Positions 14,207 to 43,350 of a stretch of 64,000 nt of DNA are shown in pieces. The position numbers were made by a program, and so were the translations under genes. Origin of the DNA: a virus. Lineage: Duplodnaviria; Caudoviricetes. The stretch's first letter is position 1, and each line of letters starts with the position of its first letter. The DNA is taken from the IMG/VR virus record IMGVR_UViG_2854208954_000001, positions 15,498-79,497 of that record; one strand, written 5' to 3'. The notes beneath the pieces are model-generated. The model was given only the letters and a program-made list of their open reading frames with translations. It was not told the DNA's origin and did not search any database.

Positions 14207-16812
14207 ATGGCGGACAGTTTTGGACTTAAGCTTGGCATTGAGGGCGAAAAGGAATTTAAAAAGTCGCTTGCCGAAATCAATCAGAGCTTTAAGGTGCTTG
14301 GCTCTGAGATGAAGCTTGTGTCCTCGCAGTTTGATAAGAATGACAATTCCGTTCAGGCTTTGTCTGCAAGAAATACGGTTCTTAACAAGGAGATTGATGC
14401 ACAAAAGCAGAAGATGAAACCTTGCGACAGGCACTTGCAAATGCATCAGAGTCATTTGGTGAAACTGACAGGAGAACACAAAGCTGGCAAATTCAGCTTA
14501 ACAATGCCGAGGCATCACTCAACAGTATGGAGCGTGAACTGAACAGTAATAATTCTGCACTTGAACAGGCAAAGACGGATATTGAGGGGACAGAAAAATC
14601 TCTTGAAAAGGTTGACGGTCGGCTTGATGATACTGCCGAAAGTGCCGATGATATGGGCGATGAAATCAAGGACGCAGGCGACAAGGCGGATAAGTCAAAG
14701 GAGAGGTTTTCAAAGCTTGGTTCGATACTCAAGGGTGTGGGCATTGCGATGGGTGCGGTTGTTACTGCGGCTGCCGCAACTGCCGTTAAGCTCGGCAAGG
14801 AGGTAGTTAATGCCTATGCCGACTATGAACAGCTTGTCGGCGGTGTTGATACGCTTTTCAAGGGTTCATCACAGAAGCTGCAAAGCTACGCATCTAATGT
14901 CTATAAAACGGCAGGCCTTTCTGCAAATGACTATATGGAAACTGTTACAGGCTTTTCCGCAAGCCTTATTCAGTCGCTTGGCGGTGATACGGACAAGTCG
15001 GTAAAGTATGCCGATATGGCAATCACGGATATGGCGGATAACGCAAACAAGATGGGTACAGATATGTCACTCATTCAGAATGCGTATCAGGGCTTTGCCA
15101 AGCAAAACTACACCATGCTCGATAACCTTAAACTTGGCTACGGCGGTACTAAAGAGGAAATGCAAAGACTTCTCTCTGACGCAGAAAAAATATCTGGCGT
15201 GAAATATGATATTTCGTCATATGCCAATGTGGTCGATGCAATCCATGTTATGCAGGAGAGTATGGATATTGCCGGCACTACCGCAAAGGAGGTGGAGGGT
15301 ACAATTTCGGGTTCGGTTAATGCGTTGAAATCCTCGGTTACTAACCTTGTGGTAGGATTTGGTGACGCAAATGCTGACCTCGGTGTGTTGTGTGAAAATG
15401 TTGTAACAGCATTTCAGACCGTGCTTGAGAATATCTCGCCTATTGTGAAAAATCTCATCTCAGCCTTGCCGACAGTCATTACCACACTGCTTGAATCGGC
15501 AGGTGAAATGCTTCCCACTGTTCTGGAAACTCTTGCAGAATTGTTTGCACAGGTGCTTGAGGGATTGCTTCAGCTTTTGCCACAGCTGATTCCCGTTGCG
15601 GTATCGGCTTTATTAACAATTACGAATGCAATTGTTGAAAATCTGCCCTTGCTGATTGAGTCGGCAACCTTACTCGTAGCAACTCTCGTACAGGGCCTTG
15701 CAGATGCACTGCCTACACTAATTCCTACTACGGTCAATGCGGTTATGACGATTGTACAGGGACTTCTGGACAGCTTGCCGTCAATTCTTGACGCAGGACT
15801 TGAACTTGTGTCAGCACTTGCACAGGGTATTCTTGATGCACTTCCCGACCTCATATCTAAACTGCCTCAGATTATTATGGGCATAGTTACATTTCTTTTA
15901 AATTCAATACCGCAAATCATACAGACAGGCATTAAGCTGCTGACCTCTCTTGTTAGTGCCTTACCCGATATTATCACAGCAATAGTTAAGGCTATTCCGC
16001 AGATTATCAACGGGATTATAAATGCGGTAATAAATTCAATTCCGCAGATTATTCAGGCAGGCATTGACTTGCTCATTTCACTTGTCAAGGCTCTGCCCAC
16101 CATTATAGTCACAATCGTGAATGCAATACCCGACATCATTTCAGGCATTGTTAATGCTCTTATTGACAATATTCCGGCAATAATTCAGGCGGGTATTGAT
16201 TTGTTGATTTCGCTTGTTAAGAATCTGCCGACTATCATTAAGGGAATTGTAAAGGCAGTACCTAAGATTATTGAAGGCATTGTAAAGGCCTTTGGTTCAC
16301 TTATGTACAAGATTGTTGAAATTGGCGGTAACATTGTAAAAGGCTTGTGGGACGGTATCTGCGGTCTTGCATCGTGGCTCTGGGATTCAGTCAGCGGTTG
16401 GATTTCGGGTATCTGGGACGGCATCTGCGACTTTTTTGGCATTCACTCACCGTCAAAGGAAATGGCATGGGTTGGAGAAATGCTCGTCAAGGGCCTTGCC
16501 GGCTCTATTGACAAGAACGGTGATATGGCTGTTCGTGCCGCCGAGGGTATGAGCAGTGATGTTTCAAGTGTTATGAACTCACTTGCTGATGATATGAAAA
16601 CTGCCTTGCCGACTGATTTCAGCATTGACGGAAATGTTAAAGGATTGGTTGATAATTCAAATTCTGTTGCTTTCGGCAAGAGCGGTCTTTCGCTTGTGCT
16701 GAATATTGCAAATTTTAACAACTACTCAAATGACGATATTTCTCAGCTTACAAACGAGATTATGGAAACTGCAGGTCAGTTTGCCAAAAGGAAAGGAATG
16801 GTATTTGCGTGA
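14207..16812 (+). CDS. Tape measure protein, split by a 1-nt deletion near 14415
   Basis: ORFs 14207-14542 and 14422-16812 join as QKQK(I)ETLRQALAN; amphipathic repeats LPQIIQAGIDLLISLV. Confidence 0.85.
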
Positions 16813-33782: not shown

Positions 33783-34715
33783 TTACATATTAAGTGTACC
33801 AAGCACCTTACCTACACAACGAACATCATCAAATCCGTGTAAAGGTATAGGCTTATAGGCTGGATTAAGTGAAACAAGCTCCTTTTTTCCTAATTTTTTA
33901 ATATACGATTCACCGTTAAGTACAAAAACCCCGATTTCGCCTTCAAAGACACTTGATGTTTGCTTAACAAGCACGGTTTCGCCGTTTGAAAATTTAGGTT
34001 GCATACTATCACCTGATATTTTTAACGCAAAATCAGCTGAAGTAGTCATATCATTTCGTGGAACAGTAAGCCATTCAGCTAAAATATCATCGCCAAGCCA
34101 TGAGCCAGTACCTGCTGAAACCGGTGTTTCATAGAACGGAATTACAATAGTGCTTTCAGCAACAGGCTTCTGCTCAGGAGTTATAAGATTAGTAATTCTT
34201 TTTAATACGGCAACTTCACCGTTGATAAATCTTTTATTGTGAAAACTATAATCGAACACTTTCCCGAAATCCGTTGCTGTTCGAAAATCATCAACATATC
34301 GTTCAATTCTACCTATCAATTCAGTTATTGCAGAAAACAAGTACTGTTTATCTTTGGCAAATAAAGCATCATTATATTGAATTCTTCTTAAAGAATATAA
34401 AACAGAATGAATTCTATCCAAACTATGTTCATCAAGCTCGTCACACATCTTCTCAAAATTAAACATAGATAAGCTATGGTCATCACGAATTTCTTCCTTA
34501 TTTGTTTCATCTCTGCCAAGTAAAATATCAACACTTACATCAAAATAATCAGCCATTTTTATAAGTGTTTTTATATCTGGTTCTCTTTTTCCTGCCTCAT
34601 AAAGAGAAATGGTACTTTCAGAAAGACCGAGAATTTTTCCTAATTCTTTCATTGATAATTTGTGTTCTTTTCGTAATTCTTTTAGTTTAGTCATAAGCTC
34701 AGCCCCTATTGTCAT
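33783..34715 (-). CDS. CI/LexA-like repressor (XRE HTH + S24 peptidase)
   Basis: LKELRKEHKLSMKELG..YEAGKREPD; VSAGTG; GDSMQP; YIKKL. Confidence 0.92.
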   Translation of the reverse strand: MTIGAELMTKLKELRKEHKLSMKELGKILGLSESTISLYEAGKREPDIKTLIKMADYFDVSVDILLGRDETNKEEIRDDHSLSMFNFEKMCDELDEHSLDRIHSVLYSLRRIQYNDALFAKDKQYLFSAITELIGRIERYVDDFRTATDFGKVFDYSFHNKRFINGEVAVLKRITNLITPEQKPVAESTIVIPFYETPVSAGTGSWLGDDILAEWLTVPRNDMTTSADFALKISGDSMQPKFSNGETVLVKQTSSVFEGEIGVFVLNGESYIKKLGKKELVSLNPAYKPIPLHGFDDVRCVGKVLGTLNM

Positions 34716-34723
34716 TATTATAA

Positions 34724-34831
34724 ACTTTACTATTAGTAAAGTAAATTAAACTTTGCAAAATGTCAAGAAAAAACTTGACAAATAGTAAATAAAGGCGTAT
34801 TATATACTTGAAACTTGACAATATGCAAAGT
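34724..34831. promoter_or_regulatory. Lysis-lysogeny switch: four 19-bp operators and rightward promoter
   Basis: ACTTTACTATTAGTAAAGT, ACTTTGCAAAATGTCAAGA, ACTTGACAAATAGTAAATA, ACTTGACAATATGCAAAGT; TTGACA(34775)-17-TATTAT. Confidence 0.75.
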
Positions 34832-34847
34832 TGAGGACGGTGATTAA

Positions 34848-35075
34848 ATGAAAAAGCGTGTTTATCTCATTGATTTGAGAAATAAAAAGGGGCTAACTCA
34901 ATTAGATATATCTAAAAGTATGGGAATATCTGAGAGTTACTACAATCTTATTGAACAGGGACAAAGACAAAAGAATATGAACATCGCTATTTTATATGGT
35001 CTTTCTAAAGCATTGAAGGTATCAGTAAACACACTGGTAGATAAGGAAATAAATTTTGCAAGAAAAGGAGATTGA
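34848..35075 (+). CDS. Cro-like XRE HTH protein
   Basis: LRNKKGLTQLDISKSMGISESYYNLIEQG; divergent from cI. Confidence 0.9.
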   Translation: MKKRVYLIDLRNKKGLTQLDISKSMGISESYYNLIEQGQRQKNMNIAILYGLSKALKVSVNTLVDKEINFARKGD

Positions 35076-35281
35076 TTATGATAGGTAAAACAATCAACAG
35101 ATACAAAATAATCGGCAACATAAACAATCGTGTTGTTATGGCTCACAACCCAAATGCAGTTGAACCGTGGGTTGTGTGGTGGCTGGACAGCGACGGAGAT
35201 CCTTACAGCGGCAGTTACTTTGCAAGCAGAAATGCCGCTGCCAAAGAATTTATGGAGAGAGCATTTTGTGTAATAAAGTGA
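35072..35281 (+). CDS. Hypothetical protein
   Basis: GGAG SD, coupled ORF; PWVVWWLD..GSYF. Confidence 0.65.
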   Translation: MIMIGKTINRYKIIGNINNRVVMAHNPNAVEPWVVWWLDSDGDPYSGSYFASRNAAAKEFMERAFCVIK

Positions 35282-35457
35282 ACCCTCGCTGTAAAGGGTG
35301 CGGACACCGCAGACCATTAAACCATAGTAACAACAAAGGCTATTCGATTTGTTATTACATTCTTGATACGGGACAGCCACGAGATTGCACAGTTGAAGAA
35401 TGTACGCACTACACAAATAAGGAATGTCACATCAAGGAGGACTTATGGACAGATTAG
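35278..35457 (+). CDS. Small Cys-rich hypothetical protein
   Basis: GTG overlapping upstream stop; CKGC..CYYILDTG..C..C. Confidence 0.55.
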   Translation: MNPRCKGCGHRRPLNHSNNKGYSICYYILDTGQPRDCTVEECTHYTNKECHIKEDLWTD

Positions 35458-35630
35458 ATTTATTTGAAAGGAAAAATTTAACTAAAACCGAAAAACTTGA
35501 AAAAATACTCAGAAAATACGGAATAAATTTTGACGATTTAAGACAGCTTAATGAATCTCAGATTAAAGCAGTAGAAACAGACTATTATTCAACTTATGGT
35601 GAATCAATATCAATAATGTTTGATTTTTAA
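35445..35630 (+). CDS. Hypothetical protein
   Basis: GGAGG SD before ATG 35445. Confidence 0.6.
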   Translation: MDRLDLFERKNLTKTEKLEKILRKYGINFDDLRQLNESQIKAVETDYYSTYGESISIMFDF

Positions 35631-35692
35631 GCCGAAACCGCCGCAAGGCGGTCAGCAGGAAATGACCTACCTGCTCTGATGATGGCAGGTCA
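35631..35692 (+). ncRNA. Hammerhead ribozyme, type II with loop-I pseudoknot
   Basis: GCC-GAAA, stem III CCGCC-GCAA-GGCGG, GUC cleavage triplet (35651-35653), stem I AGCAGG/CCUGCU, CUGAUGA core, (U)GGC, pseudoknot UGACCU/AGGUCA. Confidence 0.85.
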
Positions 35693-35707
35693 AAAGGATG
35701 TGATTTT

Positions 35708-37666
35708 TTGATTTATCTAACGGCAAAGGAAGTTGCTGGGATAAAAGGTTGCTCTGAACGATATGTAAAAATGCTCATAAACAATGGAAGTCTTCAGGGT
35801 GATGAAACAATAAACCAAAACAACCGCAAAAAATATTTGATACCTTTAAATGAACTATCCCACTCGGAACAGCTTAAATACTACAAATCGCACGCAATAG
35901 CAATTCCTGAGGATTTGCTCCCCGAACGCAAGACGGAGCGACCCCACAAGGAATTTGATGAATTTTCGGCGGTACAGCGTGAAGAGATTGCCGAATGGAT
36001 AAGGATACTTAATGCTTGGGATGAGTATTGTGCAACATCAAAGTTACAGAAAGTACCTGCAACAGAAAAATTTGTACAACTGCAAAAGGTCGCTAATCCC
36101 GACCTTAACATATCGAAGGGAATTTTGTACCGGAAAAAAAAGGCTTTAAAAGCCGATGATCTTGCAGGACTGCTTGACAATCGTGGAAGTTGGAAAAAAG
36201 GTACATCGTCAATTCCTGAAGAAGTGTGGCAATGCTTTTTAAGTTTTTATCTTGATGAGGCACAGCACCCTATACAGGCGTGCTATGAATACACCGAAAT
36301 GTGGATTAAGCGAGAAGCTCCACAGCTGTTACCTCTCCCTGCTTATGCATCGTTTTACAGGAAAGTACAAACGGCAATACCTAAGCCTGTTGAAATTATG
36401 GGACGGCAAGGTATGAAAGCCTTTAGGGACAGGTGTGCTCCGTACATACGCAGGACATACGAAGGAATGGCGTCAAACGAATGGTGGATTGCAGATAACC
36501 ACACATTTGATGTGCAGACAAAGGGAGAAAACGGAAGTATCCACAGGCTTTATCTTACAGCGTTTTTTGATGCTCGTTCGGGTATTTTTACAGGCTGTTA
36601 TGTGACCGATGCACCGTCATCGCAGGCTACATTGATAGCTCTACGAAAGGGCATAGTTAAGTACGGCATACCCGAAAACATATATGTAGATAACGGTCGA
36701 GAGTTTCTGACATTCGATGTCGGCGGACTTGGTCATAGATTGAAAAAGAGTCAAAAGGACAAGTTTGCACCGCCGCCTGTTTTTGAACGGCTGGGCATTA
36801 AAATGACAAATGCTATCGTACGAAATGCGAAGGCAAAGATTATTGAAAGACGATTTCGAGATGTTAAAGACCGACTTTCAAGACTGTTTCCGACTTATAC
36901 AGGCGGTAATGTAGTCGAACGACCGGAAAGACTTAAAAAGGTAATCAGGGACACCGACAACATACCCACGGATTATGAATTCACTCAGGCAGTTGAGGAC
37001 ATTTTAACCTACTATATGAATGAAAAACCATATAGCGGAGCGGTAAGCTCAGACAGCGGTAAAAGCCGAATGCAGGTTTACAGAGAACAACTTAAAGAAA
37101 AACGAGTCGCCGCAGAACTTGACCTCAACTTGATGTTAATGAGAAGCACAAGAAGTCAGAAAGTCGGCAGGCGTGGAGTACATCTTACTGTTGCAGGCGA
37201 GAAAATTGATTACTACAATGATGACCTTATTTTAAATCATTTTGGAGAATCTGTTTACTGTCGATATGACCCGGAAGATATTTCGGAAGTCAGAATTTAT
37301 GACCTTGATGATAACTACATAATGACCGCTCCAACAGACAATGAAGCAGTCCTTGCCTACGGAGCATCTAAAGATGCAGTTGCTCAGGCACTCCGTAAGG
37401 TTAAGAGCCTTGAAAAACTCACTAAACAGGAACTCAAGGCAAGTCAGATTACAGCATTTGGCAAAGAAACAGCACTCAATCTTGTGCTTGCAACCGCTGA
37501 GGAAAACAAAGCAAATGCCGAGGAAATCAATCCGAAGGTTATATCAGTACACCGTGCCGATGAAACGGCAGAGCAGTTGCCTATGGCAGTTGGTCAGTCG
37601 AATATCGTAACGATAGATAAGGCAAAAATGATAAGAAATCTTGAACAGCGACAAAAGGAGGAATAA
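35708..37666 (+). CDS. Mu-like DDE transposase (MuA-like)
   Basis: N-terminal HTH, WWIADNHTFD, IYVDNGREF, KIIERRF, Mu-transposase C-terminal region. Confidence 0.92.
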   Translation: MIYLTAKEVAGIKGCSERYVKMLINNGSLQGDETINQNNRKKYLIPLNELSHSEQLKYYKSHAIAIPEDLLPERKTERPHKEFDEFSAVQREEIAEWIRILNAWDEYCATSKLQKVPATEKFVQLQKVANPDLNISKGILYRKKKALKADDLAGLLDNRGSWKKGTSSIPEEVWQCFLSFYLDEAQHPIQACYEYTEMWIKREAPQLLPLPAYASFYRKVQTAIPKPVEIMGRQGMKAFRDRCAPYIRRTYEGMASNEWWIADNHTFDVQTKGENGSIHRLYLTAFFDARSGIFTGCYVTDAPSSQATLIALRKGIVKYGIPENIYVDNGREFLTFDVGGLGHRLKKSQKDKFAPPPVFERLGIKMTNAIVRNAKAKIIERRFRDVKDRLSRLFPTYTGGNVVERPERLKKVIRDTDNIPTDYEFTQAVEDILTYYMNEKPYSGAVSSDSGKSRMQVYREQLKEKRVAAELDLNLMLMRSTRSQKVGRRGVHLTVAGEKIDYYNDDLILNHFGESVYCRYDPEDISEVRIYDLDDNYIMTAPTDNEAVLAYGASKDAVAQALRKVKSLEKLTKQELKASQITAFGKETALNLVLATAEENKANAEEINPKVISVHRADETAEQLPMAVGQSNIVTIDKAKMIRNLEQRQKEE

Positions 37667-37669
37667 TAA

Positions 37670-38590
37670 ATGTCGGTAATGTCAGCCAATCCTGAATTAC
37701 AGGAGAAATTAAGGAACTTTATCGAAGAGTGCGGCTCACAAACCAAAGCCGCAAAAGCTCTCGGAAAGTCAGCAGCGACTTTGTCAACCTACTTGAACAA
37801 CCGTTATAACGGTAATTTAAGTGATTTTGAAAAGTTTTTAACAGAGACTTTTGAAACAAAAGCCGCTGCAGAAAATCTCAAATCAGCTCAGGTGCTTAAC
37901 AGCTACAAGCCTACAAGCATAAGCTCAGAGGTTTATGATACAATCCGCTTGTGTCATCTTAAGGGCGGTCTTGCAATTGAGTGTGGCGATGCAGGCATAG
38001 GAAAAACAATGGCTTGTAAAAAGTATGCAGAAGATTATCCGGCTACTGCGATTTATGTGTCTGTAAATCCTTGCTTGGTAACTTTGAGTGCCTTTTTAAA
38101 ACTGCTTTGCAGAACACAGAAAATCACCGCAACAGGTCGCAAAGATGAAATGTGGTTAAGACTTGCAGATAGCTTTGAAGGTGAACGCAAGGTACTCATC
38201 ATTGATGAGGCACAGCATCTGCCGATTAAAACCATTGAGGCTATCAGAGCTTTTTTTGATAGCAACCCACAGCTTGGTATTTGCCTTGTCGGAAACATTG
38301 AAACCGTTACAAATACCGGCAAAAGCAAAGAAGCGTTCGCTCAGATTCGTAACCGTACAAAACTTACCGAAGTAAGGCATACATCAGCAATTAAAAACAG
38401 CGACATTGAGCTGTTGTTTCCTGCCGTTAAGTCCGATGAACGAGCAGTAAGTTTTTTACTTGGCATTGCAAGGTCTGAACAGGGCATCAGAGGAGCAAGC
38501 AATGTTTTTGGAAATGCCGTTGACAACGGAAACATCACCTATGAAGGCTTAATCGCAATGGCAAAAGCTATGCGTATCAAGGTGTTTTAA
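37670..38590 (+). CDS. MuB-like AAA ATPase with N-terminal HTH
   Basis: GDAGIGKT Walker A, LIIDEAQHL Walker B; follows the transposase. Confidence 0.92.
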   Translation: MSVMSANPELQEKLRNFIEECGSQTKAAKALGKSAATLSTYLNNRYNGNLSDFEKFLTETFETKAAAENLKSAQVLNSYKPTSISSEVYDTIRLCHLKGGLAIECGDAGIGKTMACKKYAEDYPATAIYVSVNPCLVTLSAFLKLLCRTQKITATGRKDEMWLRLADSFEGERKVLIIDEAQHLPIKTIEAIRAFFDSNPQLGICLVGNIETVTNTGKSKEAFAQIRNRTKLTEVRHTSAIKNSDIELLFPAVKSDERAVSFLLGIARSEQGIRGASNVFGNAVDNGNITYEGLIAMAKAMRIKVF

Positions 38591-38612
38591 ATAATATTCG
38601 GAGGGATTTTAA

Positions 38613-38849
38613 ATGTCGTTAAGAAAAATCGTGTTACTGCTCGCCGCAGGGTTCAGCACGGGAGTAGTAATGACCGCCGCATTCGGTCAAATGGGTACAA
38701 GGAGCTTTACAGCAGGCGGAGAAATTTGCTTTGTGCCTATGGTGCTCCTGCTTGTATGGGTCGGTTGGATGATCCGTGGCGAAAGCCGAAAGGTAAAAAA
38801 GAGTAAAAGGAGGGGTAACAATGACCGCAGAAGAGTGGAAAAAGGTTGA
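38613..38849 (+). CDS. Small membrane hypothetical protein
   Basis: Two hydrophobic segments, basic tail, GGAGG SD. Confidence 0.6.
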   Translation: MSLRKIVLLLAAGFSTGVVMTAAFGQMGTRSFTAGGEICFVPMVLLLVWVGWMIRGESRKVKKSKRRGNNDRRRVEKG

Positions 38850-39207
38850 CGAAGCCCTTACATCTGTATGGAGTCCGTATGTACATCTCAAAATTGACGG
38901 ATATAAAGTATCTCTGAACCTCACTCAAAAATCACGATTTCAAAATGTTATTGCAGTTTATATCAACGATGAATTTCGTGGCAAGTGGCTTATGGAGGAC
39001 TGCGAAGAACGCAGGAGATTTTGTTGCTGTAAGAGACAGTCGGTAGTTACCGAAAAAGATTGCAAACTTTACGGAGCTCGTAGCAAGAAAGCTAAGCAGG
39101 AACTCAAAGAGAAGTTTGGCTATGATGTGTATTTACCATATTGGACAAACTTTGAGAAAATGAAAAAACATTTTATTGCTAATAACAAAAGCATTGAACT
39201 TTATTAA
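38821..39207 (+). CDS. Hypothetical Mu-like early protein
   Basis: GGAGG SD, coupled ORF. Confidence 0.7.
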   Translation: MTAEEWKKVDEALTSVWSPYVHLKIDGYKVSLNLTQKSRFQNVIAVYINDEFRGKWLMEDCEERRRFCCCKRQSVVTEKDCKLYGARSKKAKQELKEKFGYDVYLPYWTNFEKMKKHFIANNKSIELY

Positions 39208-39224
39208 ATTTCGGAGGGATAAAA

Positions 39225-39521
39225 ATGGAAGATTACACAGTTGAATTTGGAAATGAATTGAGTGGTGCGATAATAGATTCGTTTGCTAAAAAAGCCAAAA
39301 CCGCTGTTTGTGAAAAAAAGGTAGTAATAATTTCGGTTGAAAATTCTGACAAAACAACCGACTCTGTTGTAACAGGAAATGCTATCGATATTCTTGGAAA
39401 AATAGGGTCATTAACAATTGAAGTTATAAAAAAGCTCGAAAAAAATATGGGCAAAACTTTTGCAGATAGAACTTTAGAAGGCTTTATATGTGCAATAAAA
39501 GAGGTTAATGAGCGGAGATAA
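39225..39521 (+). CDS. Hypothetical protein
   Basis: GGAGG SD, in operon. Confidence 0.7.
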   Translation: MEDYTVEFGNELSGAIIDSFAKKAKTAVCEKKVVIISVENSDKTTDSVVTGNAIDILGKIGSLTIEVIKKLEKNMGKTFADRTLEGFICAIKEVNERR

Positions 39522-39529
39522 TCCGCTCA

Positions 39530-39588
39530 CCTTAATGCAACTTCCGCCAACGGGAACGGTCACAAGTCCGTATGAATGCAGAGTGAGG
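39530..39588 (+). ncRNA. Twister ribozyme, type P1
   Basis: P1 CCU/AGG, U^AA (cut 39533/39534), P2 UGCA/UGCA, T2 AC/GU, P3 hairpin, P4 ACGG/CCGU with L4 UCACAAGU, catalytic G39581-A39582, T1 CAC/GUG. Confidence 0.9.
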
Positions 39589-39622
39589 ACAACAATACAT
39601 ATTGAACAGGAGGTCAATTTAT

Positions 39623-39877
39623 ATGAAAACATCAAAGAAAATCTGTAAAAACGGCTCTATTACTCTGCCAAAGCAGATAAGAGGCGAAGCAGGATTGTTT
39701 CCGGGCAATGCTGTTGACATTGAAACAAGTACAGACGGCACTGTTACAATTAAACCGTCTGCTCCCTGTTGTCGCTTTTGCGGTACAGTTGAAAATGTAA
39801 TCATTGCAGATAATGTTATCATCTGCCGCAAATGTGCCGAAAAATTACTTGCAAAGGTGGATAAAACAAATGACTGA
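39623..39877 (+). CDS. AbrB/MazE/SpoVT-family regulator with C-terminal Zn ribbon
   Basis: KICKNGSITLPKQIR..G..V.I...VTIKP; CRFCG..CRKC. Confidence 0.85.
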   Translation: MKTSKKICKNGSITLPKQIRGEAGLFPGNAVDIETSTDGTVTIKPSAPCCRFCGTVENVIIADNVIICRKCAEKLLAKVDKTND

Positions 39878-40505
39878 TTTAAAAAAGCAGATTGATGAGC
39901 TTGCAGGCATTAAAGCAGATATGAGCAAACTCAAAGCACGCAAGGACAAGCTCGAAGCAGAGATTATTATGCAGTGCTCGGAAGACCTTGAAAACACCAA
40001 ATATAAAAGTGTCCATTACGCAGGCACAGAATCAGAGCTTACAGCGGTAACTTCGGAATCTCTCAAAATTACATACAACTCATTTTTGCTCTCAATTTTT
40101 GGCAAAGCATACAAAGATGCGGTTACGGAAAAGACAGAATATTCCCTCTCTGCTCCGGCAAAAAGAATGCTCATCGGTTTGTGGAAGGGCAATTTTGTAA
40201 GATGCACCGTCAAAGAAGTTATTGAACAGATGAACGGCGTGTCTGATGACGAACGCAAACAGCTTGTCAAAAAATGCAAGGGCATTAACTACGATAAGGA
40301 TGTAAACAACATTTTAAAGTTCACAAACCTTTCGGAGGACGATGCAAAAGAGTATGCCTACCTCATTTCAGAGGCGGCTGTATGGCAGGACTTCAAAAAC
40401 CTGCTGACCGTCAACTGTATGGACGAAAGTCATATTGACGATATCCTAATGAAGATACAGAGCAGTTTTGTTGTTGAGGACAGCACAAAGATATCTTTAA
40501 GCTGA
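39870..40505 (+). CDS. Hypothetical protein with N-terminal coiled coil (possibly Gam-like)
   Basis: Coiled-coil N-terminus; Mu semi-essential region position. Confidence 0.6.
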   Translation: MTDLKKQIDELAGIKADMSKLKARKDKLEAEIIMQCSEDLENTKYKSVHYAGTESELTAVTSESLKITYNSFLLSIFGKAYKDAVTEKTEYSLSAPAKRMLIGLWKGNFVRCTVKEVIEQMNGVSDDERKQLVKKCKGINYDKDVNNILKFTNLSEDDAKEYAYLISEAAVWQDFKNLLTVNCMDESHIDDILMKIQSSFVVEDSTKISLS

Positions 40506-40506
40506 G

Positions 40507-41019
40507 GTGATTGATTTGTTAAAGCCACAGCAGACACAAAGAATATACGCAATGGCGGCACGGCTCGGTGTGTTGGAATCGGGCAACAAAAACGATATGC
40601 TGCACACGATTGTTTATCGTCTTACTCAAAAGGAGAGCATACGCACTCTTGATGAAAACGAATACCGAACAGTTGTCGCAGAACTTGCCGAAAGGCTGAA
40701 ATTGCAGAGCCTCACAGAGCCGCCGAAACCGTATAAGAAGAAAAGATACGAGGACAGCGGCAGAGGAAAAATGTCAGACGGTCAGAAACGCAAAGTGTGG
40801 CAGTTGATGTACCAGCTTGAAAAATACGATACCGAGCCTACCACAGCTAAACTCGGCGACAGACTCTGCGGTATTATAAAGAAAGAGTTAAAAATTGACT
40901 GTACATCAAAGCAGCCTTTTAGGTGGCTGACATATAATCAGGGCATAACCTTGATTGAAAAACTTAAAAAGTACATTGACAGTGCTCAAAGGAGGAAGGC
41001 TGGTGAAAATAAATCTTGA
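40507..41019 (+). CDS. GemA/DUF1018 family regulatory protein
   Basis: IYAMAARLG..LH......ESIRTL..E; RLCGIIKK..FRWLT....LIEKLK. Confidence 0.8.
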   Translation: MIDLLKPQQTQRIYAMAARLGVLESGNKNDMLHTIVYRLTQKESIRTLDENEYRTVVAELAERLKLQSLTEPPKPYKKKRYEDSGRGKMSDGQKRKVWQLMYQLEKYDTEPTTAKLGDRLCGIIKKELKIDCTSKQPFRWLTYNQGITLIEKLKKYIDSAQRRKAGENKS

Positions 41020-41290
41020 TGATTTGGTAGGCACTCAAAGGGATATAGCGGAGATAATAGGAATTGAAAGCTATATTAAACTCTGTCAAACATTTGGTGG
41101 AGATACAATATATATCCAAAAATACAGCGAGTTACAAAAACTTGAACGCAATGCTGAAATCAAGGCGAAGTACAATGGATACAACAGCAGTCAGCTCGCA
41201 AGAGAGTATGATTTGTCTGAAAGGTATGTGAGAATCATATGCTCAAACGGTAATCTTGACGGTCAGTTAAGTATTTTTGATGATATATAA
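41003..41290 (+). CDS. Mor-family transcription activator
   Basis: IIG..LCQTFGGDTIYI; RNAEI..YNG.N..QLAREYDLSERYVR.I. Confidence 0.88.
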   Translation: MKINLDDLVGTQRDIAEIIGIESYIKLCQTFGGDTIYIQKYSELQKLERNAEIKAKYNGYNSSQLAREYDLSERYVRIICSNGNLDGQLSIFDDI

Positions 41291-41394
41291 CAATGAAGAA
41301 AAAATAGGATATTCTTCCTCTACGGGAGTACGGTTTTATAAGGTATTATTAAGTTACAGACTTAATGATACCTTATTTTTTTGGAGTAGTTTTT

Positions 41395-42063: not shown

Positions 42064-42618
42064 ATGGGCAGAAACAACCGCAGAGCTTGCGGAAAAATCG
42101 ACAAATTGCCTCCTGACCTCAAGGACACCGTAGATCAGATGCTTGTCAGCGGACAGACCTATCGTGAAATTGTGTCATACCTTGCTGATAACGGCGAACA
42201 GCTGTCACAGGCAGCAGTTAGCCGTTACGCATCAAGGTTTTTGGCGAACGCTCAGCAGTTACGAATCGCACAGGAAAATTTCAGAATGATACTCACCGAA
42301 ACCGAGCGTTATCCTGAAATTGACCCTGCAGAGGCTATTTTGAGAATGGCATCACAAAAGGTTTTTGATGCCATATCAAAACTTGACGAAGGACAATTCG
42401 ATAAAGTGTCTGCCGAAGACCTTTTAAGACAGGCTACTGCCCTTGCGAGAGCAGTAACATACAAGCGTAAGACCGACACGGATGTCAAGTCAGACAAGCG
42501 TCTTGCCCTCGAGGAAAATCAGAGCCTGCTTTATGACACTATCAAGAAAAGTAACCCACGGCTCTACAACGAGCTTATGGATGAAATCAACAAGCTCAAA
42601 GCAAAGGAGCAAGGATGA
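42064..42618 (+). CDS. DUF3486 / Mu gp27-like protein (small terminase candidate)
   Basis: RACGKIDKLPPDLK..L....TY.EI..L..S..AVSRY. Confidence 0.85.
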   Translation: MGRNNRRACGKIDKLPPDLKDTVDQMLVSGQTYREIVSYLADNGEQLSQAAVSRYASRFLANAQQLRIAQENFRMILTETERYPEIDPAEAILRMASQKVFDAISKLDEGQFDKVSAEDLLRQATALARAVTYKRKTDTDVKSDKRLALEENQSLLYDTIKKSNPRLYNELMDEINKLKAKEQG

Positions 42619-43124
42619 TGAACATCAAGTGGTATGTTTTGTATGTAAACACAGGACAAGAACATGCTGTTGCGGAACAGCTCCGACATCGTGGTTATGA
42701 TGCCATTGTGCCGATTGAAAACAAACTGATACGCTCAAAAGGCAAGTGGATAACCCAACCGCATATACTTTTTGACGGCTATGTTTTCGTTCGTATGGAT
42801 TACGAGTGGTCAAAATATTATGTGTTTAAGGGCATTCCGAACATTATTAGATTGCTCGGAGGTGGAACAAGCCCTATCCCTCTTACGGACACAGAATCAG
42901 AGTTTATTTTGACTTTGAGCGAACTTTTGAAAACTCCCTCGGTGCTTAAATTCACTGATGACGGTTACGAAACAGTCAGCGGATTTTTGGCTGAGAATAA
43001 AGATAAAATTGTGAAAGTACAGAAACGATACAAGAAAGCAACGGTCAAAATTACCCTTGCAAGTGAGCCGACTGAGCTTACAGTATCGTTTACCGAACAA
43101 ATGCCCGAACAGACGGCGGATTGA
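42615..43124 (+). CDS. NusG-paralogue transcription antiterminator
   Basis: NGN domain WYVLYVNTGQE, LFDGYVFV, IPNIIRLLG; KOW-like C-terminus. Confidence 0.85.
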   Translation: MMNIKWYVLYVNTGQEHAVAEQLRHRGYDAIVPIENKLIRSKGKWITQPHILFDGYVFVRMDYEWSKYYVFKGIPNIIRLLGGGTSPIPLTDTESEFILTLSELLKTPSVLKFTDDGYETVSGFLAENKDKIVKVQKRYKKATVKITLASEPTELTVSFTEQMPEQTAD

Positions 43125-43209
43125 TTCGTCTCCACCCGATGCAACGGCTGACATACGGCGAAGTCACCGATAACCTCAGGTTAGCGGATGGCGAAGCTAT
43201 ACCCAAGTT

Positions 43210-43302
43210 AAAAACAGCGGTTTGTTCGTTCATGGATAATCCCTCCGGTAATTAGTTCATATGGCTGACATTAAAATTAACACCACAAACCGCTGTTTTT
43301 TA
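43210..43302 (+). terminator. Terminator-like structure with 16-bp stem and large loop
   Basis: AAAAACAGCGGTTTGT (43210-43225) / ACAAACCGCTGTTTTT (43285-43300). Confidence 0.6.
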
Positions 43303-43320
43303 TATACATTAAAATGCTTT

Positions 43321-43350
43321 TAAACACCTTTTAACGGGTGTTTATTTTTA
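43321..43350 (+). terminator. Second terminator-like hairpin before packaging genes
   Basis: TAAACACC-TTTTAACG-GGTGTTTA + TTTTT. Confidence 0.65.

Follow-up and report, generated by a model that had tools for sequence, protein, structure and literature searches.

We examined a 64,000-nucleotide (nt) stretch of viral DNA (Duplodnaviria; Caudoviricetes; positions 15,498 to 79,497 of IMG/VR record IMGVR_UViG_2854208954_000001), called the window here in its whole length, and observed that the genes for the MuA-like transposase and the MuB-like ATPase of a Mu-like early operon are bracketed by two different self-cleaving ribozyme motifs, a type II hammerhead on the upstream side and a type-P1 twister on the downstream side. 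The original prediction, made from the letters of this DNA, had claimed such a bracket, and our searches with Rfam and with lineage-specific models placed both motifs at the same coordinates to the nucleotide. Also as predicted, the cut sites read from the motifs delimit a segment of 3880 nt (35654 to 39533), which by Pfam and PHROGs searches contains the MuA-like and MuB-like genes and three small open reading frames (ORFs). The arrangement of hammerhead, MuA, MuB and twister is a lineage-wide feature rather than a coincidence, and was found in essentially every relative with enough sequence. As we describe later, the ribozymes probably act as punctuation that would cut the early transcript into separate, hairpin-ended messages.

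For comparison with the window, 47 related loci were retrieved with the MuA protein (MuA 51–83% identical) from genomes of Clostridia, Oscillospiraceae, Lachnospiraceae and Collinsella; counts given here for the lineage are for these loci together with the window. Ribozymes were located with covariance models made from curated alignments (R1 for twisters, R2 for hammerheads), which were built since most of the twisters fall below the Rfam threshold, and which were used instead of regular-expression scans because the latter were too noisy.

The hammerhead of the window lies on the + strand at 35630–35694, and scored 42.5 bits with Rfam model RF02276 in a scan that covered the window from end to end, above the gathering score of 37, and 81.1 bits with R2. 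As read off the sequence, its catalytic core is complete, with the CUGAUGA and GAAA elements and the A15.1-U16.1 pair. The cleavage triplet is GUC, which conforms to the NUH rule, and the cut is predicted after C35653, so that A35654 would be the nucleotide with the 5'-hydroxyl (5'-OH). Stem III consists of 6 base pairs (bp) closed by a GCAA loop, stem I also has 6 bp, and the open stem II has 3 bp, with one extra U between A9 and stem II, as in most members of the lineage. Loop I (UGACCU) pairs with the 3' tail (AGGUCA) in a 6-bp pseudoknot, and this tail abuts the AAAGGA ribosome-binding site of the TTG-initiated transposase gene. At the other end, the first base of the ribozyme is overlapped by the stop codon (35628–35630) of the second of two small upstream ORFs. 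The motif looks catalytically complete, and its cleavage would leave the stem III hairpin on the upstream product; the MuA message would then begin with stem I, the core and the pseudoknot tail.

The twister, at 39529–39589 on the + strand, was detected by a permissive Rfam scan of the region from 34.5 to 44 kb (RF03160, 52.2 bits, E 1.3e-9), and scored 70.1 bits with the lineage-specific model R1. It has the UAA element at 39533–39535, with the U-A step in the internal loop between P1 and P2, and the cut is predicted between U39533 and A39534. The window copy departs from the Rfam consensus at two points only, both of them compensatory changes, in pseudoknots T1 and T2, and it has all 27 of the 67 alignment columns that are invariant among 32 sequences. 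Its minimum free energy (MFE) fold reproduces P0, P1, P2 and both hairpins. This ribozyme, too, looks catalytically complete from its sequence.

Directly before the twister is a 7-bp hairpin on the + strand, P0 (39510–39528; MFE fold, z -3.6 and -4.3), of a kind known as an auxiliary twister stem (PMC11662667). A GC-rich P0 hairpin directly precedes every one of the 56 distinct twisters of the lineage, with a median energy of -12.6 kcal/mol as compared with -5.6 kcal/mol for shuffles. After the predicted cleavage of lineage twisters, 0–6 unpaired nt follow P0 at the new 3' end, and the cleaved 3' end in the window folds as a blunt interrupted hairpin (-16.1 kcal/mol, z -4.3). The P0 loop of the window contains the stop codon (39519–39521) of an ORF of 98 amino acids (aa), so that a terminating ribosome would sit on P0 and the cleavage site. 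The stop codon of the ORF before the twister is also located in the P0 loop of loci L001, L002, L003, L005 and L007 (TAA; TGA in L002).

Both motifs show compensatory changes. Among 55 distinct hammerhead sequences, 96.8% of cells were paired, 15/21 pairs were changed on both sides, and covariation was seen in all stems and in the pseudoknot between loop I and the tail, where 4/6 pairs were changed on both sides. Helices P1, P2 and P4 and pseudoknots T1 and T2 of the twister are present, with 96.4% of cells paired among 30 distinct sequences and 12/21 pairs changed on both sides, including one in each pseudoknot: an A-U pair of T1 is replaced by G-C in 2 sequences, and a pair of T2 is A-U in the window and G-C in others. 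Slid-alignment controls for the twister were all down to 22–41% paired. The covariation in hammerhead and twister, pseudoknots included, indicates that selection acts on the RNA structure and not merely on the DNA sequence.

The survey also showed that the positions of the ribozymes are fixed. We found 81 solid hammerheads and 66 twisters, separated from background by a clean score gap and all on the MuA strand; all 81 hammerheads lie upstream of MuA and 65/66 twisters downstream of MuB. A hammerhead ends 13–31 nt before the MuA start in 44/47 sources with upstream DNA, the exceptions being L011 (at -147 nt), L026 (at -79 nt) and L028 (a degenerate remnant), and a twister is present at +2.9 to +4.2 kb from the MuA start in 41/42 sources with enough downstream DNA, the exception being L019, in which the whole region is missing. 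The search of Mu-like prophages for ribozymes at both positions, which had been suggested with the original prediction, thus gave a strongly positive result. The distance from cut to cut is 2995–4229 nt (n=38), and the same layout was found in two human-gut phage contigs with only 40% MuA identity. Further upstream hammerheads are present in 23 sources, and a second twister, 0.4–2.4 kb further on, in 24; because of these additional copies, the view of the bracket as a special two-ribozyme device is not supported. Rfam scans of all 47 loci at gathering threshold found type II hammerheads, type-P1 twisters and RAGATH-28 only, and none of the pistol, hatchet, twister-sister or hepatitis delta virus-like motifs.

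Three pre-MuA hammerheads appear to be degenerate. That at L018:49-110 is without the GAAA/stem III part, that at L026:5858-5922 has CCGAUGA instead of CUGAUGA, and only a 19-bit remnant is found at L028:5906-5972.

The ribozymes occupy the spacers between genes. Measured from the upstream stop codon, the ribozyme is at a median distance of 5 nt for hammerheads and 19 nt for twisters, and its end is a median of 14 and 23 nt, respectively, from the next start codon. The conserved gene order, as derived by ORF clustering of the loci, begins with a cro-like gene and variable small ORFs that are separated by 0–3 extra hammerheads; it continues with the hammerhead, MuA, MuB, a conserved small ORF and the twister, then, in two-twister loci, with a variable cassette, which consists of unknown genes and is bounded by the second twister, and has an AbrB-like gene, a 233-aa ORF, GemA and Mor at the distal end. 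It follows from this order that the ribozymes mark the borders between conserved and variable gene blocks. The extra hammerheads often flank a Bro-N/anti-repressor-like gene, and also small variable ORFs. A Bro-N/anti-repressor-like gene (phrog_130 and others, E 1e-44) stands alone between two hammerheads, immediately before the pre-MuA hammerhead, at L032:4480-5416 and in ~10 further loci.

A ribozyme at one of these borders was also found in a phage outside the lineage. Pseudomonas phage JBD30 (NC_020198.1) has a 66-bit type II hammerhead (L052:9394-9465) that takes up exactly the gp18-gp19 gap, immediately ahead of its gp19-GemA-Mor module, and the start codon follows directly after the ribozyme. 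Sequence 80–100% identical to this hammerhead region, mostly at least 95%, is present in 119 other Pseudomonas phage records, and the region is without RNA-feature annotation among the records listed. Before the GemA-Mor module, the window and most of its lineage thus have a twister and the Pseudomonas phages a hammerhead, and since JBD30 has a hammerhead where the window has a twister, the ribozyme class is interchangeable at this position.

In the window, both ribozymes are on the + strand of the same early operon, and Pfam and PHROGs assignments follow the order of Mu-like early operons: a divergent repressor and then, on one strand, cro/ner-like, MuA, MuB, GemA and Mor. The LexA-type repressor is on the minus strand at 33783–34715 (Pfam/PHROGs). 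All other features are on the + strand, beginning with a Pe-like early promoter (34775–34803; TTGACA-17-TATTAT, 11/12 matches, by consensus scan only) upstream of the cro/ner-like helix-turn-helix gene that is first in the operon (34848–35075; Pfam HTH_3, E 1e-9). Two small overlapping ORFs of 96 and 68 aa (35167–35630; ORF calls) are followed by the MuA-like DDE transposase gene with its TTG start (35708–37666; Pfam Mu-transpos_C and HTH_Tnp_Mu_2; phrog_310, E 3e-117), the gene of the MuB-like AAA+ transposition ATPase (37670–38590; Pfam AAA_22; phrog_296, E 8e-55), and three small ORFs of 78, 128 and 98 aa (38613–39521; ORF calls, PHROGs and ORF clustering), the first of which is conserved after MuB in ~28 relatives, while the other two are variable. 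The distal early module (39623–41290; Pfam MazE_antitoxin, GemA and Mor; PHROGs) consists of an AbrB/MazE-like gene, the 233-aa ORF, GemA and a Mor-like activator gene. The first strong terminator-like hairpin on the + strand comes after the Mor-like gene (41338–41376, given also as 41338–41386; 18 bp, with a T run; pattern scan only), and is the probable end of the early transcript. Because the genes are tightly packed on one strand, with the Pe-like promoter before them and no strong terminator until 41338, it is plausible that both ribozymes are on one transcript of ~6.6 kb. It had been claimed that the two ribozymes are in the only two sizeable intergenic gaps of this part of the operon; this is nearly right, except that a 91-nt gap is also present at 35076–35166, between the cro-like gene and the next ORF.

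Two other structured RNAs were observed in the window. A RAGATH-28 motif (43115–43197, + strand; Rfam, 67 bits) overlaps the 3' end of a gene for a phage NusG paralog (42615–43344 region; Pfam NusG, E 1.6e-19; phrog_6386, 'transcription antiterminator'), and a terminator-like hairpin follows at 43321–43344. RAGATH-28 follows a NusG-paralog gene in 14/14 sources where it was found, including L019, in which this gene is right after MuB. We considered RAGATH-28 as a stand-in for the missing twister of L019, and rejected this because the motif directly follows the NusG-paralog gene there, and so is linked to the gene and not to the twister position. Possibly, RAGATH-28 is an RNA site for the action of a LoaP-like antiterminator; within the limited literature covered by our search, no paper mentioned RAGATH-28. 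A SAM-I riboswitch (RF00162, 61.5 bits; 1440–1563, minus strand) is located in another phage-like part of the window, and is unrelated to the ribozyme bracket.

The reading that we favor, and consider probable, is that the early transcript, which would start at the Pe-like promoter (~34.8 kb) and stop at the terminator-like hairpin that follows the Mor-like gene (~41.4 kb), would cut itself at 35653/35654 and 39533/39534. Three messages would result, the first with cro and small ORFs, the second with MuA, MuB and three small ORFs, and the third running from the AbrB-like gene through GemA to Mor. Each upstream product would terminate in a stable hairpin, formed by stem III of the hammerhead or by P0 of the twister, with 0–6 nt and a 2',3'-cyclic phosphate after it, and each downstream product would start with a 5'-OH within a folded ribozyme remnant, a few nt before the next ribosome-binding site. 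Because of P0 and of the type II hammerhead topology, every predicted fragment would be structure-capped at both ends. The purpose, we infer, would be to uncouple decay and translation of neighboring modules, so that transposition genes, variable accessory cassettes and the Mor module could each have their own level and timing, and cassettes could be swapped without disturbing their neighbors. We infer likewise that cleavage takes place in vivo, that the modules are co-transcribed and that cleavage affects stability. Ribozyme-programmed segmentation of the transcript, as put forward in the original prediction, is therefore retained as the best reading, on the grounds of complete motifs, plausible co-transcription and the positive survey; the part of that prediction in which the released segment forms a circle is unsupported, for reasons given below.

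Several observations weigh against segmentation. The score of the window twister is below the Rfam gathering score of 67.2, although just 2/66 lineage twisters reach that score, which makes the RF03160 threshold a strict one for this twister subgroup. Segmentation offers no explanation for the split by which hammerheads are upstream and twisters downstream. No ribozyme was found in the Mu-like Bacillus phage BalMu-1 or in Fusobacterium phage phiRTG5, from which it follows that the device is not essential to the Mu lifestyle. In Bacillus subtilis the 5'-OH product of the glmS ribozyme is reportedly degraded faster by RNase J1, a result said to be that of Collins et al. 2007, so a 5'-OH end need not stabilize an RNA. 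Finally, when twisters were assayed in vitro at high throughput, a smaller fraction was cleaved if a P0 hairpin was present (PMC11662667).

Among alternatives, the one that survives best, and which we still consider unlikely, is a translation-start device, in which the hammerhead would mainly serve to give MuA a 5' end that is defined and folded, just ahead of its ribosome-binding site, and the twister would do likewise for the next gene, so that MuA translation is freed from the upstream ORF and from read-through. The narrow spacing between hammerhead and MuA start in 44/47 sources, the pseudoknot tail abutting the AAAGGA element, the short median gaps between either ribozyme and the next start codon, and the start codon directly after the JBD30 hammerhead all agree with this idea, and ribozymes located before ORFs reportedly serve translation initiation in some RNA viruses (PMC13725137). 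Yet, such a role overlaps the processing model rather than excluding it, the ordinary ribosome-binding sites that are present require no special initiation mechanism, and the universal P0 hairpin on the upstream product is left unexplained.

Alternatively, the ribozymes could be linkers at the level of DNA, that is, homology patches of 60–70 bp for recombination that swaps cassettes, with RNA cleavage being secondary or vestigial. Such patches would fit the location of the ribozymes where conserved blocks (MuA-MuB-orf78; AbrB to Mor) adjoin highly variable ORFs, the twister pairs that flank a variable cassette, and the 27/67 invariant twister columns. However, every helix, and the pseudoknots as well, show compensatory double changes, orientation is strictly strand-specific and catalytic cores are retained in nearly all copies, all of which is difficult to reconcile with such linkers, and we regard this explanation as improbable.

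The original prediction had also raised the formation of a circular mRNA, in which an RtcB-type host ligase would link the two ends of the segment (5'-OH, 35654; 2',3'-cyclic phosphate, 39533) and produce an exonuclease-resistant circle of 3.9 kb encoding MuA and MuB. The end chemistry predicted from the motifs is that required by RtcB, as is established for both ribozyme classes, and circular products were also raised as a possibility by Perreault et al. 2011 (PMC3088659). When we looked for RtcB (PF01139) in 10 host genomes carrying related prophages, as a test of the hosts called for by that prediction, it was found in 6/10 and was not found in 4/10, including two cultured isolates, nor was it found in the provirus record of the window. 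Known ribozyme-made circles (viroid-like RNAs, retrozymes and the Tornado design) have one ribozyme class at both ends, and a helix unites the ends (see also PMC6765202). In the window, neither the same class at both ends nor an end-joining helix is present, and since the ends derive from different classes the joined junction would re-form neither ribozyme; each end, moreover, would be held in a separate hairpin. The 5' and 3' ends of the same locus gave -20.2 kcal/mol, as compared with -19.5 kcal/mol for ends from different loci, and so showed no locus-specific pairing, although this comparison of duplex energies is blind to weak pairing that is common to all loci. The extra ribozymes in most relatives would generate many alternative products, and Perreault et al. 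sought circular or spliced products of prophage hammerhead clusters and detected none (PMC3088659). We therefore consider the circle very improbable, and, for RtcB-positive hosts specifically, extend the same strong doubt to ligation of the 3–4.2-kb MuA-MuB segment into a translatable circular mRNA. If it were true, the circle would be an exonuclease-proof message for transposition proteins, and the first natural circle in a DNA phage that is made by ribozymes and codes for protein.

That the ribozymes play no part in phage development and are selfish passengers or inactive relics, as might be imagined from the few degenerate copies (L018, L026 and L028) and from BalMu-1 and phiRTG5, is hardly credible, since their position is kept, with covariation, across MuA lineages down to 40% identity and degenerate copies are rare (3/47).

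Processing of the early transcript by ribozymes, the reading that we favor, has precedents, and we regard the window as a typical, well-mapped member of a known, still unexplained pattern and not as a new kind of system. The novelty that had been claimed for the bracket was overstated, in that Perreault et al. 2011 described several prophage hammerheads that flank genes or short gene blocks, and proposed a processing of long phage transcripts that yields mRNAs the length of an operon or a gene (PMC3088659). In that work, cleavage of prophage hammerhead clusters was seen while they were transcribed in vitro, and for one case also in Escherichia coli (PMC3088659). Those clusters resemble the loci described here in that their type II hammerheads have loop I paired with the tail in a pseudoknot and are placed intergenically in one phage operon, where they flank genes (PMC3088659), and the same hypotheses, long-transcript processing and possibly circles, apply to both. 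They differ in that one of the bracketing ribozymes here is a twister, and in that the MuA-MuB block and the ribozyme positions are constant throughout the lineage, whereas the flanked genes were not constant there (PMC3088659).

Twister was recognized as a ribozyme through gene neighbors that it shares with hammerheads (PMC6765202; PMC4604425), and the reason for this shared neighborhood was undetermined according to a 2019 review (PMC6765202). It has been suggested that twisters process polycistronic transcripts so that the resulting RNAs differ in stability (PMC6765202; PMC4604425). In the bacterial neighborhoods that these two sources summarize from Roth 2014 and Weinberg 2015, both ribozymes are found within a few kb, adjoining phage genes and with a RAGATH motif nearby, as is observed here, and to this the present analysis adds a position-by-position map. 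In Desulfovibrio vulgaris, cleavage in vivo is documented for type II hammerheads located near phage-like genes (PMC8782182). Our literature search, outside of which the primary twister and RAGATH papers lay, returned no paper naming Mu-like or transposable phages, or Pseudomonas Mu-like phages, with a hammerhead or twister.

In comparison with ribozyme-made circles, namely the viroid-like RNAs, retrozymes and Tornado, the predicted segment is alike in that flanking ribozymes would provide 5'-OH and 2',3'-cyclic phosphate ends that an enzyme of the RtcB or tRNA-ligase type could join. Those circles, however, are mostly small, made by one class and joined by a helix, whereas the segment considered here has ends from two classes and no helix between them, is coding and 3–4.2 kb long, and would not always have a ligase available. 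The glmS ribozyme is likewise a bacterial self-cleaving mRNA ribozyme, cleavage by which alters the fate of the mRNA, but it is metabolite-dependent, and the 5'-OH end that it creates makes its message less stable. In the window, a ligand-binding element is not evident, and, unlike in glmS, the hairpin-capped ends suggest stabilization.

A likeness in design is offered by RiboJ, which is a synthetic ribozyme insulator. Along with pRAP (PMC9872166), it exemplifies how ribozymes between cistrons cut polycistronic mRNA into messages with defined, structured ends, and expression is thereby made independent of neighboring sequence. These are engineered systems, and the present locus would be a natural counterpart of them.

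These loci bear on the role of bacterial hammerhead and twister ribozymes: one large lineage of gut-Firmicute Mu-like prophages has fixed ribozyme positions before the transposase, around the variable cassette and before GemA-Mor. Cultured hosts exist, for example Anaerotruncus colihominis DSM 17241, with its prophage at NZ_CP102255.1 448893-462830, and Enterocloster lavalensis KCTC 15153, and JBD30 is a tractable laboratory system for the same question; with JBD30-like phages and cultured hosts, ribozyme function is testable by ordinary phage genetics. The apparently degenerate hammerheads of L018, L026 and L028 lend themselves, as natural variants, to a comparison between cleaving and non-cleaving phages. 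A possible reading, less radical than the circle, is that the ribozymes form a natural 'insulator' grammar that would let transposable phages swap their early cassettes freely.

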